A stretch of 62,491 nucleotides of DNA, the filler included. It is 14 parts of 14 records of this genome, joined end to end, with 100 filler letters (N's around TTAATTAATTAA, not from the genome) between each part and the next. Parts side by side here need not be neighbours in the genome. Positions count along the whole stretch, not along the records: positions 16,113 to 22,030 come from SRR15195285_10156; 13 more parts are not named here. One strand, 5' to 3'. The first letter of the stretch is position 1. Each line of letters begins with the position of its first letter. A program made the position numbers and the translations under genes. Shown piece by piece: positions 4,188 to 45,613 of this stretch. A model generated the notes under the pieces. It saw only the letters and a program-made list of their open reading frames with translations. It did not search any database and was not told the origin of the DNA.

Positions 4188-4287
4188 NNNNNNNNNNNNN
4201 NNNNNNNNNNNNNNNNNNNNNNNNNNNNNNNTTAATTAATTAANNNNNNNNNNNNNNNNNNNNNNNNNNNNNNNNNNNNNNNNNNNN
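4188..4287. other. Artificial contig-joining spacer (N44-TTAATTAATTAA-N44); first of 13
   Basis: The identical 100-nt spacer, with stops in all six frames, also lies at 9847, 16013, 22031, 25479, 29821, 35020, 39216, 42843, 46456, 50346, 55604 and 58752. Confidence 0.99.
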
Positions 4288-9846: not shown

Positions 9847-10504
9847 NNNNNNNNNNNNNNNNNNNNNNNNNNNNNNNNNNNNNNNNNNNNTTAATTAATT
9901 AANNNNNNNNNNNNNNNNNNNNNNNNNNNNNNNNNNNNNNNNNNNNAGTTGACCCATCATTCCCGGTTCAGCTCTATAGTAGTAGCACGTAGATCTACTG
10001 TACTATGTAGATCTTGTACTGTAGTAGGATTCCGCGGGTAGGCCGGCACCGGAGTGCCGATATGCATAATCATATAACAATGCCATTGATGGTATATGCA
10101 GTATATGGCATACTATATGCTGGCGACTCTACCAGCGTGTACCCCAGCCTGGCGGCAGATGCCAGTCGGAAGTGCCGCGCTGCGCAGATCTCGCCCCAGC
10201 TCCTCGACAGCGCCACTCCAAACGTGCAGGCCAGGAAGACACTAGACAAGGGAGGTAGAGGAAGAGCTGCCGAGATACAGTACAGGTGGGCGATAGAGGT
10301 CGGGGCGGGTGGGGAGGAGGAGGAGGTCAAGCCAAATAGCCACAACCAGTACGGTAGGCTGGAGCCTCACGTCAGGAAGGGGAGGCTGGCAGCAGGCAAA
10401 GATAGGAGATCTACTGTGTGGTAGCAGCACAGCGCGTCCAGCACTTTCTAGGGTTACCGGTGCGGAGATAGGGCCGGGGTCGGCTCCAGCGCACAGTCTG
10501 CCAA

Positions 10505-16012: not shown

Positions 16013-16194
16013 NNNNNNNNNNNNNNNNNNNNNNNNNNNNNNNNNNNNNNNNNNNNTTAATTAATTAANNNNNNNNNNNNNNNNNNNNNNNNNNNNNNNN
16101 NNNNNNNNNNNNAAGCCGATCACAGTGATGTCGGCTATTCCGGCCGGACGCCCAAGTGGAGGGTGAAGACTGTTCCACCATTGTATTCTATCAT

Positions 16195-16479
16195 TTAAAA
16201 ACAACTCATTTCACCATTACTCCTCCTGTCTGCGCGGAAGCGGCTGCGGTTCATCGAGCTCATTGCGAGATAATGGTCGGCATGCAAAGGATAGCGCTCT
16301 GACGCCACTTGCTGCCATGCGCGGGTAACATCACGCCCACCGAAATCCGCTTCAAAGCTGTAATCCTCGAGAACAAATCCGTCAACGTAAGGTATGATCG
16401 ACAGTCGGTCCCCAAGACTCACTGCCAAACCGGTCGTTCGCCCATAACTCAGCAATCCAAGCTCTGCCCCCATCGCCAT
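16195..16479 (-). pseudogene. Divergent actin-like fragment (equivalent to about actin residues 135-200)
   Basis: AELGLLSYGRTTGLAVSLGDRLSIIPYVDGFVLEDYSFEADFGGRDVT..ERY aligns by eye with actin [49 protein letters not shown]..ERGY. The actin N-terminal third is absent. Confidence 0.7.
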
Positions 16480-16509
16480 CGCACGAAAGCATCCTCGACT
16501 CGATCACTC

Positions 16510-19500
16510 TCATACAAGAATGTCGGCCACGTCAATCGCGCTGCCGATGGCCACTTGGAGCTCAGCGATCTGATCTGCGGCGGGAGCAGTGCCGAGGAGC
16601 GTGTGGATGGAGGCCTTGAGACGTGCGGTGCCTTCTGCGCCCCTTCCATCCTTGTCCAAGACGTGCACCTTCAGGTCTCGTAAGCAAAGCACCTCGTACA
16701 GGAACAATCCAAGGTCAGCGATGTAGTCCAAGGCAGACTCGAACGCCGCCTCAGCTTCTTGCGGTCTGCCCAAGAAAGCTAAGCAACGTCCTTTGGACGT
16801 GTGACCCTTCCAATGAGTGATCGGAGCGACCGATCCGGCCTGGGAAAAGTCGGTGCTGATGGCAGCCTCTGCATACAACAACGCTTGATCATACAGCGCA
16901 AGCTTCTCACATACCCACGCAGCCATCGTGAACGAGTTCATGACCGAGTGCATCAGATTTTGACAGCAGTGTGGAAAGCCACCCTTGGAGAAAACGACCA
17001 GGTCCTTGACACTTGGCAACGACGTCGAGATCTCATCGATGCTCAACCCGCTTTCATCGATATCTACCACCAGCAACCATGCCAGCTTCAAGACCCACGA
17101 CCAATGTTCTGCACTGTCGAGGTGTTGACCCATTGTCCTGCGACAGAGGGCAAACAGAGGTAGCACGCAGATAAAATCGGTCAGGATCATTTCAGACTGA
17201 CACAGTGGTTGCATATTTTGCTTACGTATCTCCACGAGGGCGCACAGTTGGAATATAAACCACCATCTTATCGATAAAAGTATCGATCGACTGCCAGTTT
17301 AGACCTGCCTTGCTGAAGAGGGGTCGGCACTGCTCAGAGCGTCCCAATATGTACCCGAATTCTGTCTGGCCAATGGGTTGAAACGTCACGTTTAAGGCCT
17401 CTACAGCTAGCTCGGGATCGTCGACCATACATTCATACAGCTTCAGTGAGCGTTCGAAGCACCGATTTGCAGCCACGAGATTGCCGTAATGAACAGCGAG
17501 ATATCTGGATGGCAGGACCCAGGTAAGACACGGATCTTGGCCACAGGCGATTTCAGTTAGTTTCTTGTGATGTACCTGCACCATGTATGGTCAAATCATC
17601 TGCTGTGCAATGTTCACCACATCAAATACGGGTATCCTCATCTAAGCTTGCGTTTCAAACGGCTTACGTCGTAATTGTAGCGATCGCTTATCCACAACAA
17701 CAGCTCAGCATTTGAACCGAAGATTCCATCCCAGTCAAAGCGCTCGTGACGCAAAGCCATCTCGTAGCATGCGAAACAGGTCAGAGTCAATCCTGCTTGT
17801 AGACGCTGTGTTTCATCTTGAATCACTCGCGCAGCTTTTGAAGCTGCTTCCATCTGCGCATGTAAGATTTAGTTTTTTAAAATATAGATGCGATTTAGTA
17901 ATCTGCGCTATAACTTACAAAGCGCAGAAAAGCCTCTGCAAAAAGGAGTCCATCGTCCCCAATTTCGCCAGTAAATGCCGTCAGGCTTGACGGATAGAAC
18001 AGTGCCATCTCAGTAACAGCTGGAATTTGATCGGCCACTGGGGCGCCCACAAGATATTCCAGGCCTGAGACCGAGTACATCCAGCATGAGTAGTAATGTA
18101 CAACACTGGAGTGCAAGACTGAGTCAACACGTACGCGGCAAAAACCGATAGTCAACCGGGTCAAACTTCGATAGCAGCTGCACCAATACCTCCAGCTCTA
18201 AACGTTCCTCATCTGCGCGATGTTCAGATGCTTCACCAGCCGCCAGTTCTCCGAGAGCATCCATGGCTCTGCGTTCAATCTCAAGCTTCGCAGGTATGTC
18301 ATGACCATCTGTCAAAGCACACCTTCCGGCATTCGCAGCCAGCTTAGCCACGTCGAACTTCCGTCCGTCATCATTCGCCTTCTCCACTAGTTGCAGCAGC
18401 TTTTCGTAGCCGAGAAATCTGCCAGCACTCCTGACGATATCGTCCTGCGGTGTATCTCCAAGCCAATAGTTGATTGCGTGCTGATCGTTCTCCCAGTCAG
18501 AATTCCAGCCATGCTGAATATGCTTGGAGCAGTAATCGCGCACGTAGCGCGATATCAGAGTGTTGCCCGCATTATTCCACTCAGGCGACTTGGAGACGGC
18601 ATCAACTGGCCGAGCGGCACGCAGTAAGTCCACCAGCCTTCGATGAGATTGCCGTAGTTCTTCGTCCGTGTGCTGAGATGCGACGAAGTCGCCAACGATG
18701 TCTGCCGATGGACACGAACAATAAGTTGACGTTGTCAACCAGTTTGTTGTCAATAACTTGGTCGTCACGTTATGACAAGAATGCCATTCGCGAGGTCAAG
18801 GAGTGGAACTCACCGTGCAATGCAGGACGGTCAACTGACCCAAGGACAAGTGACCTGCGAACACGGCTGGTTTGTTACCACGACTGGACTGCCGGCACCA
18901 TTGCACCATTGCACCATTGTAAGACTTACCTGTCGATCAGCTGCTTTATCAAGCGCCGAGTGGTGAGCACGTTGGGACGTTTTCTGAATGTTCCGTCCAG
19001 CTTGGGGACGGCCTCGAACATAATCGCTAATATCAATGGAGGTACCACCGCATCTTCAGGAAGCAGAGCCAGCGCCTTGAACATATGAAGCACGTTCTCC
19101 CGCTGTGGCCCACGGATGCTGTTAAGGCTCGCGCAAATCACAGACTCTTCCACCGTGCGCTCTTTGTCAGCAGACTCTTCCCGCATCATATCTACAATGC
19201 CTTCCCATTCGTCTACTTCAAGGCCCAACCCGATGTCTTGGACAAGTTTGCCCGCTATCGAGATCGATAGAGGCAGGAGCTTGCAGAATTGTACTAGCTC
19301 CCGGGTCTGCGGCGGTACATCGCCGTCAGCACTGAGTCCGGCAGTCGAGAGCAGCATCTCGACGGCTTCCGCTTCTGTAGGCAGCCCGATGGTTACAAGC
19401 TCGGTTCGCATGGAGCTGCTGCTCTGGATCACTTGGTGGACCCGTGAGGACAGCAACACTTTGCCCCCGCTGTCTTCATCGATAAAGTTCAGCAGTTTCT

Positions 19501-21692
19501 CTTGCTCTGGATCCCAGCAATCGTCCAGTACGAGGAGCAACCTCTTCTTCTGCATTGCTAATTGCAAACTTTGCTTACGTTGCGAGTCAGGCTCGTCACC
19601 GGTGAATACGGCACCAGTCAGCTGCTGAAGCACCAAACTTTGCACATGTATCGGCGACGGCGTTTGCCCGAGAGTTACCTGCTCGCATGAATTAGATTCT
19701 CGGAAAATTCAGTGGAAGTAAAATGATGGACGGACGCCTTCTTGGTTTTGATTTCTACTCGGAGGACTAATTTGTCAAAGTACTCACCCATGCGATGGAC
19801 TCAAATTGCTCCCGGACACTGTGTTGCCTCACCAGCCAGCTAGACACTACCGTCTTACCTATCCCACCCATGCCCTGCAACCAGTTTGTTTGCAAACAGA
19901 CCAAAATTCCTGAGCAACACCCGGCAGCGACAGGCCACATGGGTGGCGATTTGATTGTTGCTGTGTTGTTTACCAGAAAGCCAATTCTGTGAGCCTCTCC
20001 GTCGACCAGATGGGAAAGAAGCTCCTTCATGGGCTGAGTCACAAACACACCCAATGGGAGCTCTGGGACATCTGCGGGCACCATTGCTTGGGCGCGTTCG
20101 TCCTCCTTGGACATCATTGCCCGCGAGTCAGGTTGAATTGAGTATGTGTCGTTCTCCTTTTTCAGACGGTCGAGCTCGCCACGTAGATCGCTGACGGAGA
20201 AGTCAGGCGATCCGGACATCTGGAGTTCAAAGTCATCTGACTCGGGATTAGGCGATAGTGCAAGCATTATCTGGCGCATGAGACCGTCAATGCCCTCTTC
20301 TGCCGAAGCCTCATCGGAAATCGGCGTCCACAAGATGCCAGCGGTCAGCAGACCAAGCCACCCGGACGGCGTGTAGTTCTCTTGCACCATCACTGGGACA
20401 ATTGGAATGCCTGTTTGCTGCGCAAACTTTAGCTCCTGCAAAATTTAGCGACGCACAACGGCACGAGAGTGACATCAGGTCTAACAAATATTCGCGCACT
20501 GCTCCTAGCTGCCCATGTCTTCTTCTTCTACTCGAATAGCACGCTCGTGCTAAAAAATGCCCAGTCACGCCCCGAGCGGAACAAAATGAGCATTATGGGC
20601 AAAGGTGGATCGGTTCCTTGCTGAGCTACTCAGCCTGGCAGCTGCGTACTATTATTCCATTTGCATCCACCCCAATGGTAGTGTGTTGCTGCTCAATGAG
20701 ACTAAGGTCAATTGTGAACACCGCAATCCCAAAGTGGCAACGCACCAGCTTGCAGTTGACCGAAGATTCATACTTCTCGGTCATGAATGGGATGATACAG
20801 GCAGCGTTACTGACTCCCTCGGCCATGGAGTCGTAGATGTCGGTTTGCATGCCACCGTCTGTGGGCAGCCGGCGCCACCAGTATGAGCAATTAAATGCAC
20901 ATCATACGAGCTTTTTTGCCAGACCTTTAAGAGGTTAGACGCACCGATGTCCATCCACGTCGGGATGCCCTTTTTGTTCAGCATATCACGTGCGGCTACC
21001 ACCAAGGCCTGGGCGTCCCACTGATATGATAAGATGGCGTGCTTGTCTCCAAATAGGCCTGCTTGCGCGACAGCCACGTTGGCAGTGCCGTAGTGTGCGG
21101 AAACAGGGGTGTCTCTGTCCTTAGCTACGGTCTCACTGTCGCTGAACCCAGCCTTCTCCATGACAAGCGCAATTAGAGCGGCCTTCACGTCATCGGCATC
21201 GTCCGCCTCGTCAATTTTGTCTTCATCAACGCCTGCCTCGGCTGCGCGCTTTTTCAACGCGCGTGGCTTCAACGACTCCAGGTCTTCTGCGAGAGCCGCT
21301 GCTGCCTGTTGGCGTGTGGGGTCGTTCGTAGCTTTCTCGATAATCAGAGCAATAATGGTGGCCTTAACGTCATCAGCGTCGTCTGCCTCATCGAGCTTCT
21401 CTTTGTCCACACCAAGCTCCCGAGCACGGTTTTTGAGAGCACGGGGTTTCAGCGTCTCCAGCTCGTCTCGAAGAGCCTGCGCTTGAGAGGACTTTGCATT
21501 TTCTGCTTCTTGCTTCAAAATAAGGTCCACTAGTGTAGCCTTCACATCATCCGCATCGTCGGCTTCGTCGATCTTGTCCTCGTCGACGCCGACCTCCGCG
21601 GCCCGCTTTTTAAGTGCCCGAGGCTTGAGGGACGAGAGTTCTGTGCGCAGCGCTGCAGACTCCGGCGGGGTCCCCTCCGGAATGGACGCCAT
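16510..21692 (-). CDS. NLR-like STAND protein: three SAP/HeH-like repeats, TIR, NB-ARC (APAF-1 type), helical region and TPR; multi-exon
   Basis: TIR HAILSYQW..WMDI/DGG..SVNCKL/ELKFA (introns 20859-20944 and 20436-20745); P-loop GMGGIGKT; Walker B LLVLDDCW; KVLLSSR; CKLLPLSISIAG (GLPL-equivalent); LH/D (MHD-equivalent, split by an intron near 18815); TPR KGRCLAFLGRPQEAEAAFESAL. Confidence 0.85.
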
Positions 21693-22330
21693 GTGATCCC
21701 TCTGGCAGCGGGCGCTCTCGACTGGCAGCGGGTGCTCTCCCAGCCTCTCTGCAACCCTCGTACCACCACCCAGTACCAAGTAGTTTTACACGGCCTCAGG
21801 AGCAAAATACAGCCGCAAGGCGCAGCGGACCCGGCGCCTCGTGCTCCTCCCCGGGGGGCGGTACGTAGGTGCCCCAAGCGCTCCGTCTCGGGATCCGTCG
21901 CGCCGGCCTCTAGAGGGCTAGCTAGCGCGCGGACTGCGCGCTCATCCACGTCTCCAACGCGCGGTCTCGCGCGGCACGTCTGAACTGGACGTGATCGAGA
22001 CCTTCGGAGCAGGAGGAAGAGGCACGAGAANNNNNNNNNNNNNNNNNNNNNNNNNNNNNNNNNNNNNNNNNNNNTTAATTAATTAANNNNNNNNNNNNNN
22101 NNNNNNNNNNNNNNNNNNNNNNNNNNNNNNTGAGCGGCTAGCAGAAGAGCTAAGACAGTGTAAGGCTGAGACTGGCAACGACGTTGAGATGCGCAGTAAG
22201 CTCGTCCAGAAGGTGGTGGCACAGGCCAAGGTAGCTGGAGGTGCAGCGTAAAAACATTTATCTGACAGACTAATCGAATCTTTGTAAAACGCAGCAGCGC
22301 GATGCTACGGCGCTCGGCCACGAAAGAGCC

Positions 22331-25033
22331 TCACAGCAAATCTCGAACTACGCCACCAGCACTTCCTGCTGCGGCCAGCTCCTGCTCGAGCTGGGCCACC
22401 TTCTCTTGCAGCCGATAATTATCTTGGCGCAGCTCCCGCCATTCTTGGCTTCGTCTGCCTTCCTCGTCAGATTCATCAGCCGTCGGACCTGACAGTATAC
22501 CCCCGATTGAAACCAGTGTCTCACCTCTGTCATCTCTGCCCAAGCCGTCGTTGGGCATCGTCGAATCCCTTGGAACGAGGCGGTGCTGTTCGTCGTGTCG
22601 CACGTCGTCATCTTTGTCCCGCTCGAGACTACTGTAGCTTCGCTCTGTTGATTCAGATCTGGATAAAGAGCGAAGTAGCAGTCCACTCCTCAACCCACGG
22701 CCGCTTCCGCTGCCACAACATGTCGCCTTGACCAACGAAGTATCATAGAGAACGAGCGGACCGATTGCAGCAATACCCATGAGCACGAACGATGTCAGAT
22801 AATAGTTGCTCAGCAAGTCGAGGTGTTTCATGGTGTTGTACGTCACGTCCCACCATGTTCTGTTTACGATCCACTGGCATAAGCTTCGCACTAGCAAAGC
22901 CCACATAACCATAAAATCATAGCAAGTCTGAAGACCCGTAAGCTGGTCATCTGCGGCCAAGAAAGCAGCATGTTGCGAGCTGGCAGGAGTGTCCAATATG
23001 CCATCGCCACCTTGCTCTGGGTGTAGTATAGGATTTGCGTCCGCATTGGTATGGCGCTCTAGATGCGACATCGCTGCTTCTGTTCGGGTGACGGCCTCTT
23101 TCAACCGACGCCGCAACCTCCACTCAAGCGAACGGAGGATCCATAGCGCAACTACGGAGCAAAGCACCGCAAATATAGCTAGCAGAAGGCTATCACCATA
23201 CAGTGGCATGTTGTTGCAGAAGGGCTTGCTCATCGCGCCGGTGTTCCAAAATCCGGGTTTGTCACATTGGCCACCGACATCTTCGTCGCATACCACGGAC
23301 ACAGAGTCGTCGCACTGTGCATCTACCCAGGTGGGTCCACCCTCCGGTTGCGCAAAGGTTGGGAGCACAGAGCAGGCCAGCTCGTGCGATGTACCTTCAC
23401 AGTCCGTCCACTTCGTCGACTTCAATGCTGAGACTCGCGTAGCTTCGTCTAGCTCTGGCGGGGGCTCGGGCTCGGGTTCTGGTTCTGGCAGCGGTTCCGG
23501 CTCTGGGTCTACTTCCTTCACAACCTTGCCGCCAACAGACAGTCCCTGGCGGGTCGACCGAATCGAGTCATACAAAAGAGTTGCGTTGTTGGTTGAGAGT
23601 GCACGCTCACACGCTGCCAGCAACGGGCTGATCGTCTCGGTAATGTTTTCCTCCGAAAACCATGACCCCGAGGACGAACCGTCGGAGAGCGCCTCTGGTT
23701 CCGGCTCTGGCTCAGGTACCGGGTCTGACGAGACGATATCTGACACCGTCTCTGCGAAGTCTTGTGCTGTTTCGGATGCAGACTTGCCCTTCAGCACAAA
23801 ATCGTCTGCGACATCGTAGTCAGCGAAGGTGATCAGCCCCATGATTAGGCGCTGCAACGCCATTGATGAGATGTTCGTGAAGGTCCGCATAGTGGTTTCC
23901 AGGATGCGGTGGCCGTGCTGCCCTAGAAAGCGCAGCCTGGTTGCAAGATCGCGTCTGAGTTTGTCTCTGGGACGGTTCTCAAGATCGCGCTTAGTGGCCT
24001 CCCGTATGTAGTCATCGTCCGAATGACAATTCCGGCAGCAAGAGACCAGACGTTGCTTTTCGTCAGCCCGCTTGGCGATTTGTTGCAAAGGGAATAGAGC
24101 CAGCGCAGTCACAACGAATGTGCCAACACACACCGCCGTTCTCAGTGTGACTGGCAAGCCATGATATGCTGAACTGTAGTAGTGCACGTTCTTCAGGTTC
24201 TCATCACTCATCGTACTGTGGGCAGCAGTGATCTCCAGCGCCTCCATGCAGAATACCGCCAACAGCCAAGCCAGGGCAGCAGCACCAACGTCCACCACAC
24301 GCTCGAGCCGAGCCAGGTTGAGATTCATTTGATAGCGAGCGCTGATTCGGACAGGTAATTCGTAGAAGGCGACTATGAGCACGAGCGCGATCACAGCGAG
24401 CCAGCTAAGAGCATCCCAGGCGTTCTGCGGCGCGTCGGTGCTACTGGGCGTCCAGTCGTATACGTGGTGCAAAAGTACAGCCACAGTGAACATCTGCGTG
24501 CTGCTCCACTTGTCGATGATGCGTGTTAGTACTGTCGTTCGGACAGTGTGAGATACTCGGCTGCCTAGCTCTTGCGCGCGCACGTCGTGTCGGGTCCCAA
24601 GCGACATGGTTCCCTCGAGCGCGGTTTTGTTCTCCTCGATCTTTCGGCTGACTCGCTCGTGGGCATCTCGCGCGGCATCAACCTTCCCGAAGAGGAAGTA
24701 GATTCCACATCCAACCACGATCAGGCACAACAGAGAGTAAACCAAGAAGATAAATGTTTCGTATGCCTCAAACGTGTCGCCGGTACCGTCTGTGTGGCTC
24801 GAGCTCCAGGTGCCGTCAGGGTCAATGATTTTTGTGATGGTCCTTCCGACGGCAAAACCGGCGATCGTGTTAAGTGCGCCCGTGATCAGCTCGTTCCGCT
24901 CGACCGTTCGCCACCCGCTGAGGTCGTCCTCCTTTGCCTCAATCTCCCGCCTCGCTCTGCTGCAGTCGGCCTGCCCCCACTTCCCGGCAACTGGCATCAC
25001 CGTCACGGCGGGGACGCTCGTCAGGGAGCTCAT
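22331..25033 (-). CDS. Unknown multi-pass membrane protein with PEPE-rich and Cys-rich loop and C-terminal coiled coil, apparently intronless
   Basis: About 900-codon ORF with many hydrophobic segments, two (PE)n tracts and a coiled-coil tail. The start at MSSLTSVP (25033) is inferred. Confidence 0.65.
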   Translation of the reverse strand: MSSLTSVPAVTVMPVAGKWGQADCSRARREIEAKEDDLSGWRTVERNELITGALNTIAGFAVGRTITKIIDPDGTWSSSHTDGTGDTFEAYETFIFLVYSLLCLIVVGCGIYFLFGKVDAARDAHERVSRKIEENKTALEGTMSLGTRHDVRAQELGSRVSHTVRTTVLTRIIDKWSSTQMFTVAVLLHHVYDWTPSSTDAPQNAWDALSWLAVIALVLIVAFYELPVRISARYQMNLNLARLERVVDVGAAALAWLLAVFCMEALEITAAHSTMSDENLKNVHYYSSAYHGLPVTLRTAVCVGTFVVTALALFPLQQIAKRADEKQRLVSCCRNCHSDDDYIREATKRDLENRPRDKLRRDLATRLRFLGQHGHRILETTMRTFTNISSMALQRLIMGLITFADYDVADDFVLKGKSASETAQDFAETVSDIVSSDPVPEPEPEPEALSDGSSSGSWFSEENITETISPLLAACERALSTNNATLLYDSIRSTRQGLSVGGKVVKEVDPEPEPLPEPEPEPEPPPELDEATRVSALKSTKWTDCEGTSHELACSVLPTFAQPEGGPTWVDAQCDDSVSVVCDEDVGGQCDKPGFWNTGAMSKPFCNNMPLYGDSLLLAIFAVLCSVVALWILRSLEWRLRRRLKEAVTRTEAAMSHLERHTNADANPILHPEQGGDGILDTPASSQHAAFLAADDQLTGLQTCYDFMVMWALLVRSLCQWIVNRTWWDVTYNTMKHLDLLSNYYLTSFVLMGIAAIGPLVLYDTSLVKATCCGSGSGRGLRSGLLLRSLSRSESTERSYSSLERDKDDDVRHDEQHRLVPRDSTMPNDGLGRDDRGETLVSIGGILSGPTADESDEEGRRSQEWRELRQDNYRLQEKVAQLEQELAAAGSAGGVVRDLL

Positions 25034-25659
25034 CCCGACCACGGCACGGACCTGCCAGCAGCCAGCAGAGAGGGCACGGCGGATCCGGCGGTCAATTGTC
25101 CGCCGAACACAGAAGCTCCTTGGCAACAACCAGCTGGTCTGTTGACCTCGACACACAGAAAACACCCTGGGTGTGCCACCAGAAGGGAACGACACGGCGC
25201 ACGCCGAGGCGGGGAGCGCCGCGCGACGCGACGCGGAGCCTCGCCGCGCCGGCGGTGCGCCGTATGGCCGGCGGCGTATACGTATGCGATCGGCGCGCCG
25301 GCCGCGCCAGGCGTCGCGACCACGCAGACGCACATTTCCGCATTGTGGACGACGACAGTCGAATGATCAAGGTGAAATTGCTGGCAGGATGGTGCAACGC
25401 AGTGCATAATACAGCAGTACAGCTGTACATGTATTTTCGAAATTCGTGATCTGTTGGGTGCGCTGGGTGTGGGAGTAGNNNNNNNNNNNNNNNNNNNNNN
25501 NNNNNNNNNNNNNNNNNNNNNNTTAATTAATTAANNNNNNNNNNNNNNNNNNNNNNNNNNNNNNNNNNNNNNNNNNNNAATATCAAGTTGTACACGGGAC
25601 TTCATGGCACATTGTGTGCTACAGGGTGCGCGCGGGATCGCGCGGCGCGACTCGGATGG

Positions 25660-42942: not shown

Positions 42943-45613
42943 TTTGACGAGTCGCGGCCACGCGGCGATCCTGACGCGAGTGTGCAAAGCCCTGGGTAGC
43001 GGTGGTGGCGAGGATGATCCAACTCTTTGGATCAGTGATCTGAAGGAAATGGAAGCGGATGGAGATCTAGAAGCTTTTCTCCAGGGGTGTCACGACTCAA
43101 TGGACGGCGATACCAATGGTGGGGGCCCCAGCGAAGCGAAGTCTGCAGACGGACCTGAGCGCAGCGCTGATGAAGGTGCCACTCAGCTGATCATTCTGGA
43201 GAGGCCTCCTTCTCCTCGCAGCGGAGGCCCTGGGTTTGGTATCAACCTTGCGCCTGACTGTGTCGTCACATCATTCAGTCACGAGGAGAGCTGCGCCAAA
43301 ATTGCGGGAGTGGAGGTGGGCAGCCACATTCTAGAGATAAACGGGGCTCCGGTCTCAACTAAAGACGACGCAGTGTCATGTTTGCGCGACACGGAGCCAG
43401 GGAGCTCTGTGTCGTTTCTCTTGGCGGGCAGTTCTGGTCGACGCTGGGATCCCACAGCAGGCAAATGGATAGGCGATGCCGGAGAGGATGGTGACGAAGA
43501 CCTGGATGGAGATGAGGACGACCAGGATCAGGACGAGGGTGGGGAAGAGGACAGTGCAGATGAAGATGACGAGCCGCTTGACTTTACGGGTGGACCGATC
43601 AAGTTTGCAGTTCTGGCAACATGCACTGTGCGCGACGGCCCAGATTCCACGACACCCAAAGTCGGGGAGCACAAACAGGGGGACACCATCGAGATTGTTC
43701 AGGAAGCCAGGAATAGCGATGGTTTAAAGGTGTACCAGACAATCACGGCCCCGAAGGGTGCCACCCGTGGGGGCTGGGTCAAACTAAAGACGTCCAAGGG
43801 GAAGGAGCTTTTGTCGGTTGTTTTGCAGTTTACCAACACGGGTGAGGTTGAGAAGGCACAGGACCCAAAAGAACCGCCACGAGATCTACTACCGTTGCAG
43901 AAGTTTTTCGGAAAAATCGACAAGGTGAAAGTCAAGATCACTGTTGATGGAGCCGGCATCTTCGTTGCAGAAGATACTAAGGAAGCGAAGAAGGTGCTCT
44001 CGTACTCAACTCGGCGCATCGTTAGCTGGTCTGTCGAGAAGAAAAACTCGTTGGTGCTTGTCGCGAACGTTGCAGACGGCGCCATAGATGAAGTCACCTT
44101 CCTTCTCAAGAACCCTGAAGGTCTGGAGGCTGCACTGGCAGAAGCGGCGATGGCTTCGTGCGTGTGGAAGGTTGATTCGGAAGCTTGGCAAGACGATGGC
44201 CTCACACCGGAGGAGAAAATAGAGAAGGAAAATGCTATCTCTGCGGTTGCTCAACAGAAAAAGAGTGATGACGACAAGGAGGCTGAATTACGACGTGAGA
44301 TCGGTGACTTGCGTCTCAAAGACCTACGAAAAAAAGCCAAAGAAATGGGCGTTTCAAAGGACACGCTTCAAACCGCAACCGATGCTGATCAGCCAGAGGA
44401 GGCCATGATCGAAGTTATCGTTGCGCACGTGCTCAAGTCAAAACAAGCCGAGCAGCCAGAAGAAGCCGAGCAGCCAGAAGAGGCCGAGGCCGTATCGGTT
44501 GCTGAACCGGCAGCAGCAGGAGCCGTTTCGGAAGGTGAACCTCCACAGCGACCAGATGACGAGATCGATCCGATTAGCCACGCCGAAATGAAGAAAAAGG
44601 CTGCTCAGGCCGAAGCTCTGTTGCAAGAAGCTGCTAGATTGATCGACTGGCAAGCAGGGATGGTGATTGATGTCGACACCGAGGACGGTGTTGAGCAAGG
44701 TGCGACTATACTGGGGCCATCGAGCCAAGGAAATCCAAAAGAGATGCAGGTTCGCTTCGCGGACGGAACAGTTGATGACTGGGACAAAGAAGACTTTGTG
44801 TTCCGGGGGGATGATGAAGAGGACGACCCTAATGCTGACACTCCCAGAGGGAATGCTGCGGCAATTGCCTTACAGCAAGAGGTCGTCAAGCACGGCACAC
44901 GCGACGTGGCGAAGATTAGAAAGCTCCGTCGAGCATCATTGGAGCCCGCTGATGCCAGCGCTGCAATGACTGCAGCTGCGGCAGCTGCCGACGACCAACG
45001 GGTCGACTCGCTGGAGCGGGACATAAAACAGCTCTCGGACTCGCTTGCTCAGGAGAAGCACGCACACGCCGACACAAAACAGGAGCTGAAGGAGCTTCGG
45101 GAGAAGCTGGCTGTCGCGGACGCTCGGTCTGAAGAATTGCAAGTTTCAACTGACAGATCTCGGACACAGCTGGAAGAGGAAGTTGCGGCGCACGAGGCGA
45201 CCAAACTAGAGTCTAGCGAAAAAGGAGCAGCCTTGGATAAGATGTCAGTGCAGGTTACTATGCTGGAAGCTACGCACGCGCAAACTACCGCTCAGTCGAC
45301 TGCTGCTGTCGAAGCAGCTCTGGGCACGGCTGCCGCAGCCCAAGCCGAAGCAACTGCTGCCAGGAAGGCTCTCGAGGAGTGTCGGAAATTACAGCACGGG
45401 CAGCAGGAGGCGGCTACACTCCACGGGACGAAGTCTGATGCAGACAAGGATCTTGCAACGAAGGACGGCGAAATTGCGAGACTTCAGCAGAAAATCAACA
45501 GTCTCGAAGAGATAATGCTCACAGACCGCAGCTCGGCCACATTGACTTGGAACATGATGGATAAAATGCTGACAAGTGACGTGCTCTTGAACACTGATGA
45601 GAGCTGGACGTAA
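42943..45613 (+). CDS. Multidomain scaffold: PDZ, SH3b-like, PH/PTB-like, SAP/HeH-like and coiled coil (5' truncated)
   Basis: PDZ GFGINL..VTSF..AKIAGVEVGSHILEINGAPV; SH3b-like CTVRDGPDSTTPKVG..GWVKL; LRREIGDLRLKDLRKKAKEMGV; C-terminal heptads. Confidence 0.7.

Follow-up and report, generated by a model that had tools for sequence, protein, structure and literature searches.

A predicted TIR-NB-ARC receptor gene with acidic N-terminal repeats from a marine single-celled eukaryote

The window analysed here, a stretch of DNA of 62,491 bases that is a chain of 14 short contigs and not a single chromosome piece, carries one gene that is predicted to encode a TIR domain, an NB-ARC domain of the Apaf-1/plant type and a helical-repeat C-terminus. 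We read its product as an NLR-type STAND (signal transduction ATPase with numerous domains) receptor in which ligand-triggered oligomerisation would switch on a TIR NADase and lead to arrest or death of the cell, and give this reading a probability of about 0.6. Homology with plant TNLs, SARM1 and bacterial TIR systems leads us to infer an immune role, activation by a ligand, oligomerisation and NADase activity. Both the immunity of plants and the defence of bacteria against phages depend centrally on TIR-STAND receptors, and the spread of this architecture among unicellular eukaryotes is, to our knowledge, poorly charted.

The gene runs on the minus strand from 21692 to 16510, and the coordinates given in the original prediction are correct, with the ATG at 21692..21690 and the stop codon at 16512..16510. 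It is composed of 11 exons and 10 introns, and its coding sequence of 4077 nucleotides translates into 1358 amino acids with 0 internal stops. The introns are 65-310 nucleotides long, 10 of 10 have GT..CAG boundaries, and the GC content is 0.543 in the exons versus 0.469 in the introns. The features of the gene are listed below, with the conservation of the NB-ARC motifs counted among 139 NB-ARC domains of the family.

16510..21692, minus strand: whole gene, delimited by GT..CAG introns, the open frame, collinear relatives and tblastn of the model on the window
21692-20945, 20858-20746, 20435-19974 and 19874-19788, minus strand: exons 1-4
19678-18930, 18854-18814, 18701-18135 and 18064-17919, minus strand: exons 5-8
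17853-17668, 17575-17226 and 17137-16510, minus strand: exons 9-11
21132..21656, minus strand: three tandem 56-amino-acid repeats, 59-66% identical in pairwise comparison
21489-21656, minus strand: repeat 1, amino acids 13-68
21312-21479, minus strand: repeat 2, amino acids 72-127
21132-21299, minus strand: repeat 3, amino acids 132-187
20262..21053, minus strand: TIR domain, about amino acids 214-345, in exons 1-3, split by introns 1 (20859-20944) and 2 (20436-20745)
20433..20435, minus strand: codon GAG for Glu288, with which exon 3 opens, in NCKL/ELKFA (slash at the exon junction); candidate catalytic glutamate
19767..20444, minus strand: open reading frame (ORF) joining TIR and P-loop, a single stop-free frame in which the TIR's second half (Glu288 onwards) is followed by linker and P-loop
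18667..20024, minus strand: NB-ARC (nucleotide-binding domain, helical domain and winged helix), about amino acids 425-745, in exons 3-7
19851..19874, minus strand: P-loop GMGGIGKT, amino acids 442-449, at the start of exon 4; K448 in 123 of 124 domains
19520..19537, minus strand: Walker B motif LLVLDD, amino acids 518-523; D522 in 118 of 118 and D523 in 117 of 117 domains
18700..18820, minus strand: MHD-like motif LHD, amino acids 732-734, split by intron 6 between micro-exon 6 and the first part of exon 7; His in 71 of 71 and Asp in 67 of 69 domains
16513..18666, minus strand: C-terminal all-helical, TPR-like half, amino acids 746-1358, as predicted from the model of relative P0001 and a sub-threshold TPR
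16723-16809, minus strand: the only motif found by TPR profiles, amino acids 1260-1288; TPR_8 22.8 bits, TPR_2 22.3

The gene model was checked against relatives found by a search with exon 5, to which the spliced protein was then aligned by blastp. The alignments are collinear over the full length, cross all of the junctions and reach both termini: amino acids 234-1357 of the model align to residues 4-1118 of 1120 in P0006, 6-630 to residues 3-629 of 640 in P0013 (47% identity), and 444-1357 to residues 4-932 of 933 in P0001 (47% identity). In a MAFFT alignment, the junctions DI/DG, CKL/ELK, GF-L/GMGG and AW/VTLGQ are crossed without gap or insertion, and micro-exon 6, which measures 41 nucleotides, completes LIDRSLVLGSVDRPALHD in agreement with the family consensus. 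Intron 3 is 99 nucleotides long, in frame and free of stops, and the P-loop shares one stop-free ORF with the second TIR half, therefore TIR and NB-ARC belong to one gene even if splicing is not assumed. Furthermore, several relatives are uninterrupted ORFs of 1100-1500 amino acids on contigs of 4-5 kb, in which TIR and NB-ARC are contiguous. A 303-residue database protein, P0136, is 100% identical to amino acids 1-249 of the model and is the window's exon 1 read on into intron 1.

The locus is found in 19 sequencing runs from 8 studies of marine, seawater or aquatic metagenomes, each containing 0.14-0.33 of the sampled words, and the metagenome contigs assembled from four runs are unspliced genomic pieces, none of which spans the whole gene. 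The latter, together with the make-up of the window from short contigs and the lack of a listed RNA run, would suit an assembly chimera or a decaying pseudogene from which no full-length protein is made. This explanation is extremely improbable, however, as the 4077-nucleotide frame is stop-free after removal of 10 canonical introns, the catalytic and switch residues are all intact, the termini and junctions match those of independent full-length relatives, and metagenome contigs from four studies reproduce the locus piece by piece, introns included, mostly at 99% identity or more.

Two joints were noted in run X3. One leads from 20853 to 20945 with a short side of 22, shares the donor end of intron 1 and ends 5 nucleotides inside exon 2; the other leads from 19879 to 20745 with a short side of 28, from the end of exon 2 to 5 nucleotides before exon 4, and would drop the in-frame exon 3. 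Neither was used, and an origin from other organisms or paralogues is more likely.

The catalytic part of the proposed receptor would be the TIR domain, for which the original prediction had reported an NCKL/E motif. The motif is real and reads across the junction of exons 2 and 3, where AAC TGC AAG CTG at the end of exon 2 is followed by GAG CTA at the start of exon 3 to give NCKL/EL in the context S-V-N-C-K-L-E-L. A hidden Markov model (HMM) of the family TIR spans amino acids 211-348 of the gene model and aligns 128 TIR domains in 122 of 185 proteins; 96 of these domains cover the column of Glu288, and 94 of the 96 have a glutamate there. A profile built from 14 TIR-bearing fragments found a single solved chain with E<0.01, that of Cat1, a CRISPR-associated TIR (E 0.0016), and the alignment pairs NCkLEL with WCWDEL, while a single-sequence search of a relative's TIR against solved structures returned chance matches only. 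Glu288 occupies the canonical C-x-x-E-L position, which we take to be that of the catalytic glutamate in Cat1, SARM1 and plant TIRs. SARM1 and Cat1 cleave NAD+. According to the available part of one study, both TIR NADase activity and cell death require the catalytic glutamate (10.1101/2021.11.29.470438). Relatives that align residue for residue with the window's TIR score 54-73 bits with Pfam TIR_2, and both TIR_2 and NB-ARC exceed the Pfam cut-offs in 10 of the first 20 relatives and in 13 of 22 further representatives, NB-ARC on its own doing so in 20 of the first 20.

The fold of the domain can be judged from the model of P0013, which covers the repeats, the TIR and half of the NB-ARC with a mean predicted local distance difference test score (pLDDT) of 86.2. 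Compared by VIA-align, in which Z gaps below 1 count as ties, its TIR part (residues 220-360) matches Hydra TRR-2 (Z 15.9), the TIR of SARM1 (Z 14.8, root mean square deviation 2.2 over 126 residues), IL-1RAcPb (14.4), MyD88 (14.3), MAL (14.1), Cat1 (13.6, 21% identity), RPS4 (12.8) and RPP1 (12.3), so that the flavodoxin-like TIR fold is probably present, with relative P0013 as proxy, and SARM1 is the closest enzymatic TIR by structure. The presence of TRR-2, IL-1RAcPb, MyD88 and MAL among the top matches would also be compatible with the same STAND switch carrying a TIR that serves as a non-enzymatic scaffold, which recruits TIR or SAM proteins in the manner of animal TLR, MyD88 and MAL; relatives with repeat, SAM and TIR but no NB-ARC (P0056 and P0077) are possible partners. 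We regard such a scaffold as very unlikely, because a C-x-x-E-L glutamate kept in 94 of 96 family TIRs is unexpected for a pure scaffold, and SARM1 and Cat1 match about equally well.

The switch of the proposed NADase receptor is the NB-ARC domain. The P-loop, Walker B, GLPL-like and MHD-like motifs that had been named for it are all intact, and Pfam NB-ARC (PF00931) scores 57.3 bits on the unspliced ORF of exon 5 and 25.7 bits on that of the P-loop, the cut-off being 23.5. In addition to the motifs listed above, the sensor-I arginine R549 (in SSR) is found in 115 of 115 family domains, the GLPL-type motif, here LLPL, has LPL in 108 of 108, and the family consensus around the MHD-like motif reads LIDRSLVLGTVDRPxLHD. 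A Foldseek search with the whole P0013 model places the tetramer of the plant TNL RPP1 first (E 5e-12 over 449 columns); next come NRC, ZAR1, Roq1, Apaf-1 and CED-4. Similarly, the NB-ARC part of this model matches ZAR1 with Z 19.6 (222 residues) and Apaf-1 with Z 16.5 in VIA-align, and residues 4-400 of the P0001 model match Apaf-1 with Z 18.4 over 303 aligned residues. By proxy on relatives that are 47% identical, these comparisons predict an arrangement of nucleotide-binding domain, helical domain 1 and winged-helix domain like that of Apaf-1 and the plant NLRs.

The model of P0001, which extends from the NB-ARC to the C-terminus (pLDDT 87.8, predicted template modelling score (pTM) 0.82), is all-alpha from about residue 350, past the winged helix. 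Its C-terminal half matches the TPR of APPBP2 (Z 15.1), domain III of MalT (12.8) and LGN (12.1), and also PlcR, PEX5 and AimR, and over residues 4-924 the model matches 6mfv, an archaeal STAND protein with a TPR sensor (Z 13.3); MalT is also matched with 13.1, where a Z of about 13 is, according to the structure-comparison tool, the edge of chance level for helical repeats. Pfam finds no LRR family in the exon ORFs or in the relatives, and the C-terminus is helical. The TPR sensor of the original prediction stands as a TPR-like solenoid in the P0001 model, but not as a Pfam family, for the motif in the window is below the cut-off. The scores of the relatives are likewise below it (for instance, TPR_12 25.9 versus 30.1 in P0041). 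The C-terminal half is thus best called a TPR-like helical sensor, a safe wording for what, with P0001 as proxy, is a predicted TPR-like alpha-solenoid.

In the mechanism that we propose, a closed, ADP-bound NB-ARC would keep the protein an inactive monomer until the C-terminal TPR-like solenoid binds a trigger, which could come from a pathogen or virus or be an altered molecule of the host. Nucleotide exchange would then open the NB-ARC and drive oligomerisation, the TIRs would be placed side by side, and the active sites around Glu288 would cleave NAD+. The resulting depletion, or signals derived from ADP-ribose, may cause the infected cell to arrest or die. The glutamate and every switch residue have been conserved even though the multigene family is large and divergent, which fits a repertoire of active enzyme-receptors.

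Several points weigh against this mechanism. Pfam TIR_2 (PF13676) scores 16.1 bits on the unspliced ORFs of the window, below the cut-off of 28, because two introns split the domain. The TPR profiles of Pfam (TPR_1/2/8/12) find one motif in the window, and its best score is 22.8 versus 25.7 (cut-offs 25.7-27.8), hence below threshold. The AlphaFold2 models are those of the relatives P0013 and P0001 (47% identical) and not of the window's protein, and the pTM of 0.49 for P0013 makes the arrangement between its domains uncertain. RNA runs carrying the locus are absent from the 19 runs listed. Finally, plant TNPs have the same TIR-NB-ARC-TPR architecture, yet the available part of the literature on them reports mostly no cell death and a function that is not known (PMC12856790), therefore architecture alone is no proof of an immune role.

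The gene belongs, by sequence similarity, to a large protist family and does not appear to be a one-off. An HMMER scan with P0013 retrieved 11,160 representatives at E<=0.001, 2,300 at 1e-10 and 249 at 1e-30; the weaker tiers surely consist of generic NB-ARC proteins, and the family comprises at least 249 clusters at E<=1e-30, so the gene is no rarity and its presence is less surprising. All of the relatives with EukProt accessions (8 of 8, from five assemblies) are labelled Picozoa sp., and the remaining ones come from marine metagenome or Logan assemblies. Single Picozoa sp. assemblies hold divergent paralogues, such as P0003 and P0169, or P0022 and P0190. Picozoa are reported to be relatives of red algae that lack plastids. 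The eukaryotic nature of the host, as originally predicted, is borne out by the spliceosomal introns and by the Picozoa sp. labels of the named relatives; the host is a marine single-celled eukaryote, and the family is apparently picozoan.

The search for defence systems and prokaryotic relatives gave little. PADLOC assigned 0 families to 5 of 7 queries and weak TIR matches only to the other two (SAVED_TIR 20.5 bits, and bSEFIR), with no match to an Avs or NLR-like model. NCBIfam gave no membership and only far-sub-threshold matches to bacterial NB-ARC-TPR families. A scan for prokaryotic relatives with one genome per species yielded 68 pattern matches, of which 0 were confirmed, an absence that is weak because the scan was pattern-based. 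A homologue search beyond the family found only flowering-plant CNLs (36-63 bits), which mirrors the word index and the make-up of the database and not phylogeny.

The absence of matching PADLOC defence models would be in keeping with the protein being a cell-death or NAD-metabolism switch for internal stress (starvation, damage or life-cycle cues), similar to Apaf-1 or SARM1, and not a pathogen receptor. The NB-ARC of the P0001 model is as near to Apaf-1 (Z 18.4) as to plant NLRs, and the plant TNPs of the same architecture have no clear immune phenotype in the available parts of two sources (10.1101/2021.11.29.470438; PMC12856790). We nevertheless consider such a switch unlikely, because at least 249 divergent clusters at E<=1e-30, several paralogues per assembly and variable N-termini form the pattern of receptor repertoires and not that of a single housekeeping death switch. 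A repertoire of putative ligand-activated TIR receptors remains the preferred explanation.

The N-terminal region was predicted to contain three helical repeats of the HeH type. The repeats are real, 59-66% identical to one another, but the HeH label has no significant match behind it and the repeats are net acidic. Each consists of a basic helix (LKPRALKKRA), an acidic stretch (DEADDADD) and a hydrophobic helix, and the P0013 model shows 3-4 helices per repeat with a pLDDT >95. The net charges of the three repeats are -4, -3 and -8, and that of amino acids 1-210 is -17, which argues against the DNA binding that is usual for SAP/HeH motifs. Pfam has no family for the repeat; the closest is Rho_N, which gives E 0.36 in the window and, in relative P0051, 20.9 bits versus a cut-off of 24.9, both matches being confined to the first helix. 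Rho_N is a member of the HeH clan. Comparison of the repeats with solved structures gave chance matches only, and in the ESM Atlas the N-terminal region matched only clusters without a name (best score 0.91).

An HMM of the repeat finds 1-9 copies in 61 of the 185 proteins examined, in several contexts, which suggests that it is a recurrent module. It occurs before TIR-NB-ARC, together with SAM and TIR (P0056 and P0077) and at both ends of P0022, which has 3 N-terminal and 4 C-terminal repeats. Some members of the family have 7-8 repeats with SAM and TIR and no NB-ARC, and others have two or three TIR_2 stretches ahead of the NB-ARC. The repeats are most likely an accessory arm of variable copy number that serves to regulate or tether the TIR and not to bind DNA. 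The relatives that show these modular N-termini are P0056, P0077, P0049, P0054 and P0022.

A copy of the repeat was noted in another contig of the window as well. Positions 42944-45610 (plus strand) hold an unrelated, stop-free ORF of 904 amino acids with a PDZ match (25.8 bits versus 27) and a long coiled-coil-like tail, and one copy of the repeat of the TIR protein lies near 44216-44422 within it (tblastn E 9e-4). In this organism, the repeat is thus a module of general use.

The contigs of the window are joined at 13 places by spacers of the form N44-TTAATTAATTAA-N44, in which a pair of 44-N runs flanks TTAATTAATTAA:

4188-4287, 9847-9946, 16013-16112, 22031-22130 and nine more: spacers

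As the window is a concatenation of contigs, genes on either side of a spacer are not genomic neighbours. The TIR-NB-ARC gene occupies nearly all of one contig (16113..22030), and tblastn of the gene model against the window's other contigs found no second TIR or NB-ARC gene. Directly 3' of its stop codon, positions 16195-16503 (minus strand) contain an ORF of 102 amino acids that aligns to a central part of the Actin profile (positions 129-190 of 410; 24.4 bits versus a cut-off of 27) and is probably a piece of a divergent gene or pseudogene of the actin type. In this region, the metagenome contigs of two runs depart from the window at 16468 and 16249, therefore the end of the contig is perhaps variable or chimeric. 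The adjoining contig has a stop-free ORF of 1011 amino acids at 22334-25366 (minus strand) with hydrophobic segments and low-complexity PEPEPE runs, for which Pfam finds no family beyond a compositional match.

The locus provides a complete, intron-resolved gene model for one eukaryotic TIR family of protists. Should the TIR prove to be an NADase, immunity of the abortive-infection type would reach into an uncultured lineage of marine picoeukaryotes, and the domain would be a tractable TIR for biochemistry. A bolder proposal is that Picozoa have a large, lineage-expanded TIR-NB-ARC-TPR repertoire, independent of or ancestral to plant TNP/TNL proteins, in which the acidic 56-amino-acid repeat is a new regulatory module tunable by copy number; we consider it distinctly unlikely in this full form. 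If it were true, the plant-type TIR resistosome would be pushed back to unicellular members or neighbours of Archaeplastida, and the repeat, present in 1-9 copies and in some proteins along with SAM or additional TIRs, would gate the assembly of TIRs or determine its location, a task that falls to ARM and SAM in SARM1. The family should be useful for studying the evolution of TIR immunity, and will be no surprise to specialists.

Among known systems, SARM1/TIR-1 and the bacterial TIR NADases Cat1 and ThsB share the TIR fold and the glutamate in the C-x-x-E-L helix with the window's protein. SARM1 combines SAM with TIR, as do some of the relatives, whereas the protein described here has no SAM, and activation through the ARM-SAM octamer of SARM1 or through CARF or SLOG sensors differs from the predicted NB-ARC switch. 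Prokaryotic STAND-TPR proteins (MalT and the archaeal 6mfv) have an NB-ARC/NOD and TPR-like layout that matches the P0001 model over its whole length, but they lack a TIR effector. An analogy had been drawn to plant TNLs, fungal NLRs and bacterial Avs. The plant TNL RPP1 is the best match of the whole P0013 model; the likeness to Avs is architectural only, with no PADLOC match.

Among other eukaryotes, NB-ARC proteins with C-terminal TPRs form a multigene family of proposed immune receptors in Ectocarpus (PMC3341825), and NB-ARC-TPR proteins are candidate immune receptors in Acanthamoeba (PMC4053784). The Ectocarpus paper names TIR 0 times (PMC3341825), and in Ectocarpus each TPR is one shuffled exon, whereas the C-terminal half of the window's gene lies on 5 exons that do not follow the repeats. 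A preprint of 2026 assembled a set of 7,432 TIRs of eukaryotes from EukProt and describes eukaryote-only clades 3 and 9-13, none of them characterised according to its available text, and Picozoa are not mentioned in the available main text (PMC13142454). We found no description of the family or of the repeat in the literature, although the supplementary tables of this TIR atlas may already list these TIRs, and the one publication found to name both Picozoa and TIR concerns, by its title and abstract, phycobiliproteins.

Plant TNLs, represented by the RPP1, Roq1 and WRR4A resistosomes, resemble the protein in the GMGGIGKT-type P-loop and in having the TIR N-terminal to the NB-ARC. They differ from it in that the window's protein has about 210 residues of repeats ahead of the TIR, a helical C-terminus and no LRR or C-JID-like domain, and their sequence identity to the family is about 18-26% in the matches of the P0013 model. 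The plant TNPs (formerly XTNX) have the same order of domains, namely a TIR, an NB-ARC with Walker A, Walker B, GLPL and MHD motifs, and a TPR-like C-terminus without LRRs, and like this protein they carry extra N-terminal sequence before the TIR. In the available parts of two sources, the catalytic glutamate is needed in the one TNP known to be active in cell death, and TNPs are described as having arisen in land plants, without orthologues in green or red algae (10.1101/2021.11.29.470438; PMC12856790). Acidic N-terminal repeats are not described for TNPs, and the likeness of TNPs to the window's protein is one of domain architecture. The TIR-STAND core is thus familiar from plant TNPs and other TIR-STANDs, and the novelty lies in the lineage, the family's size and the N-terminal repeat module.

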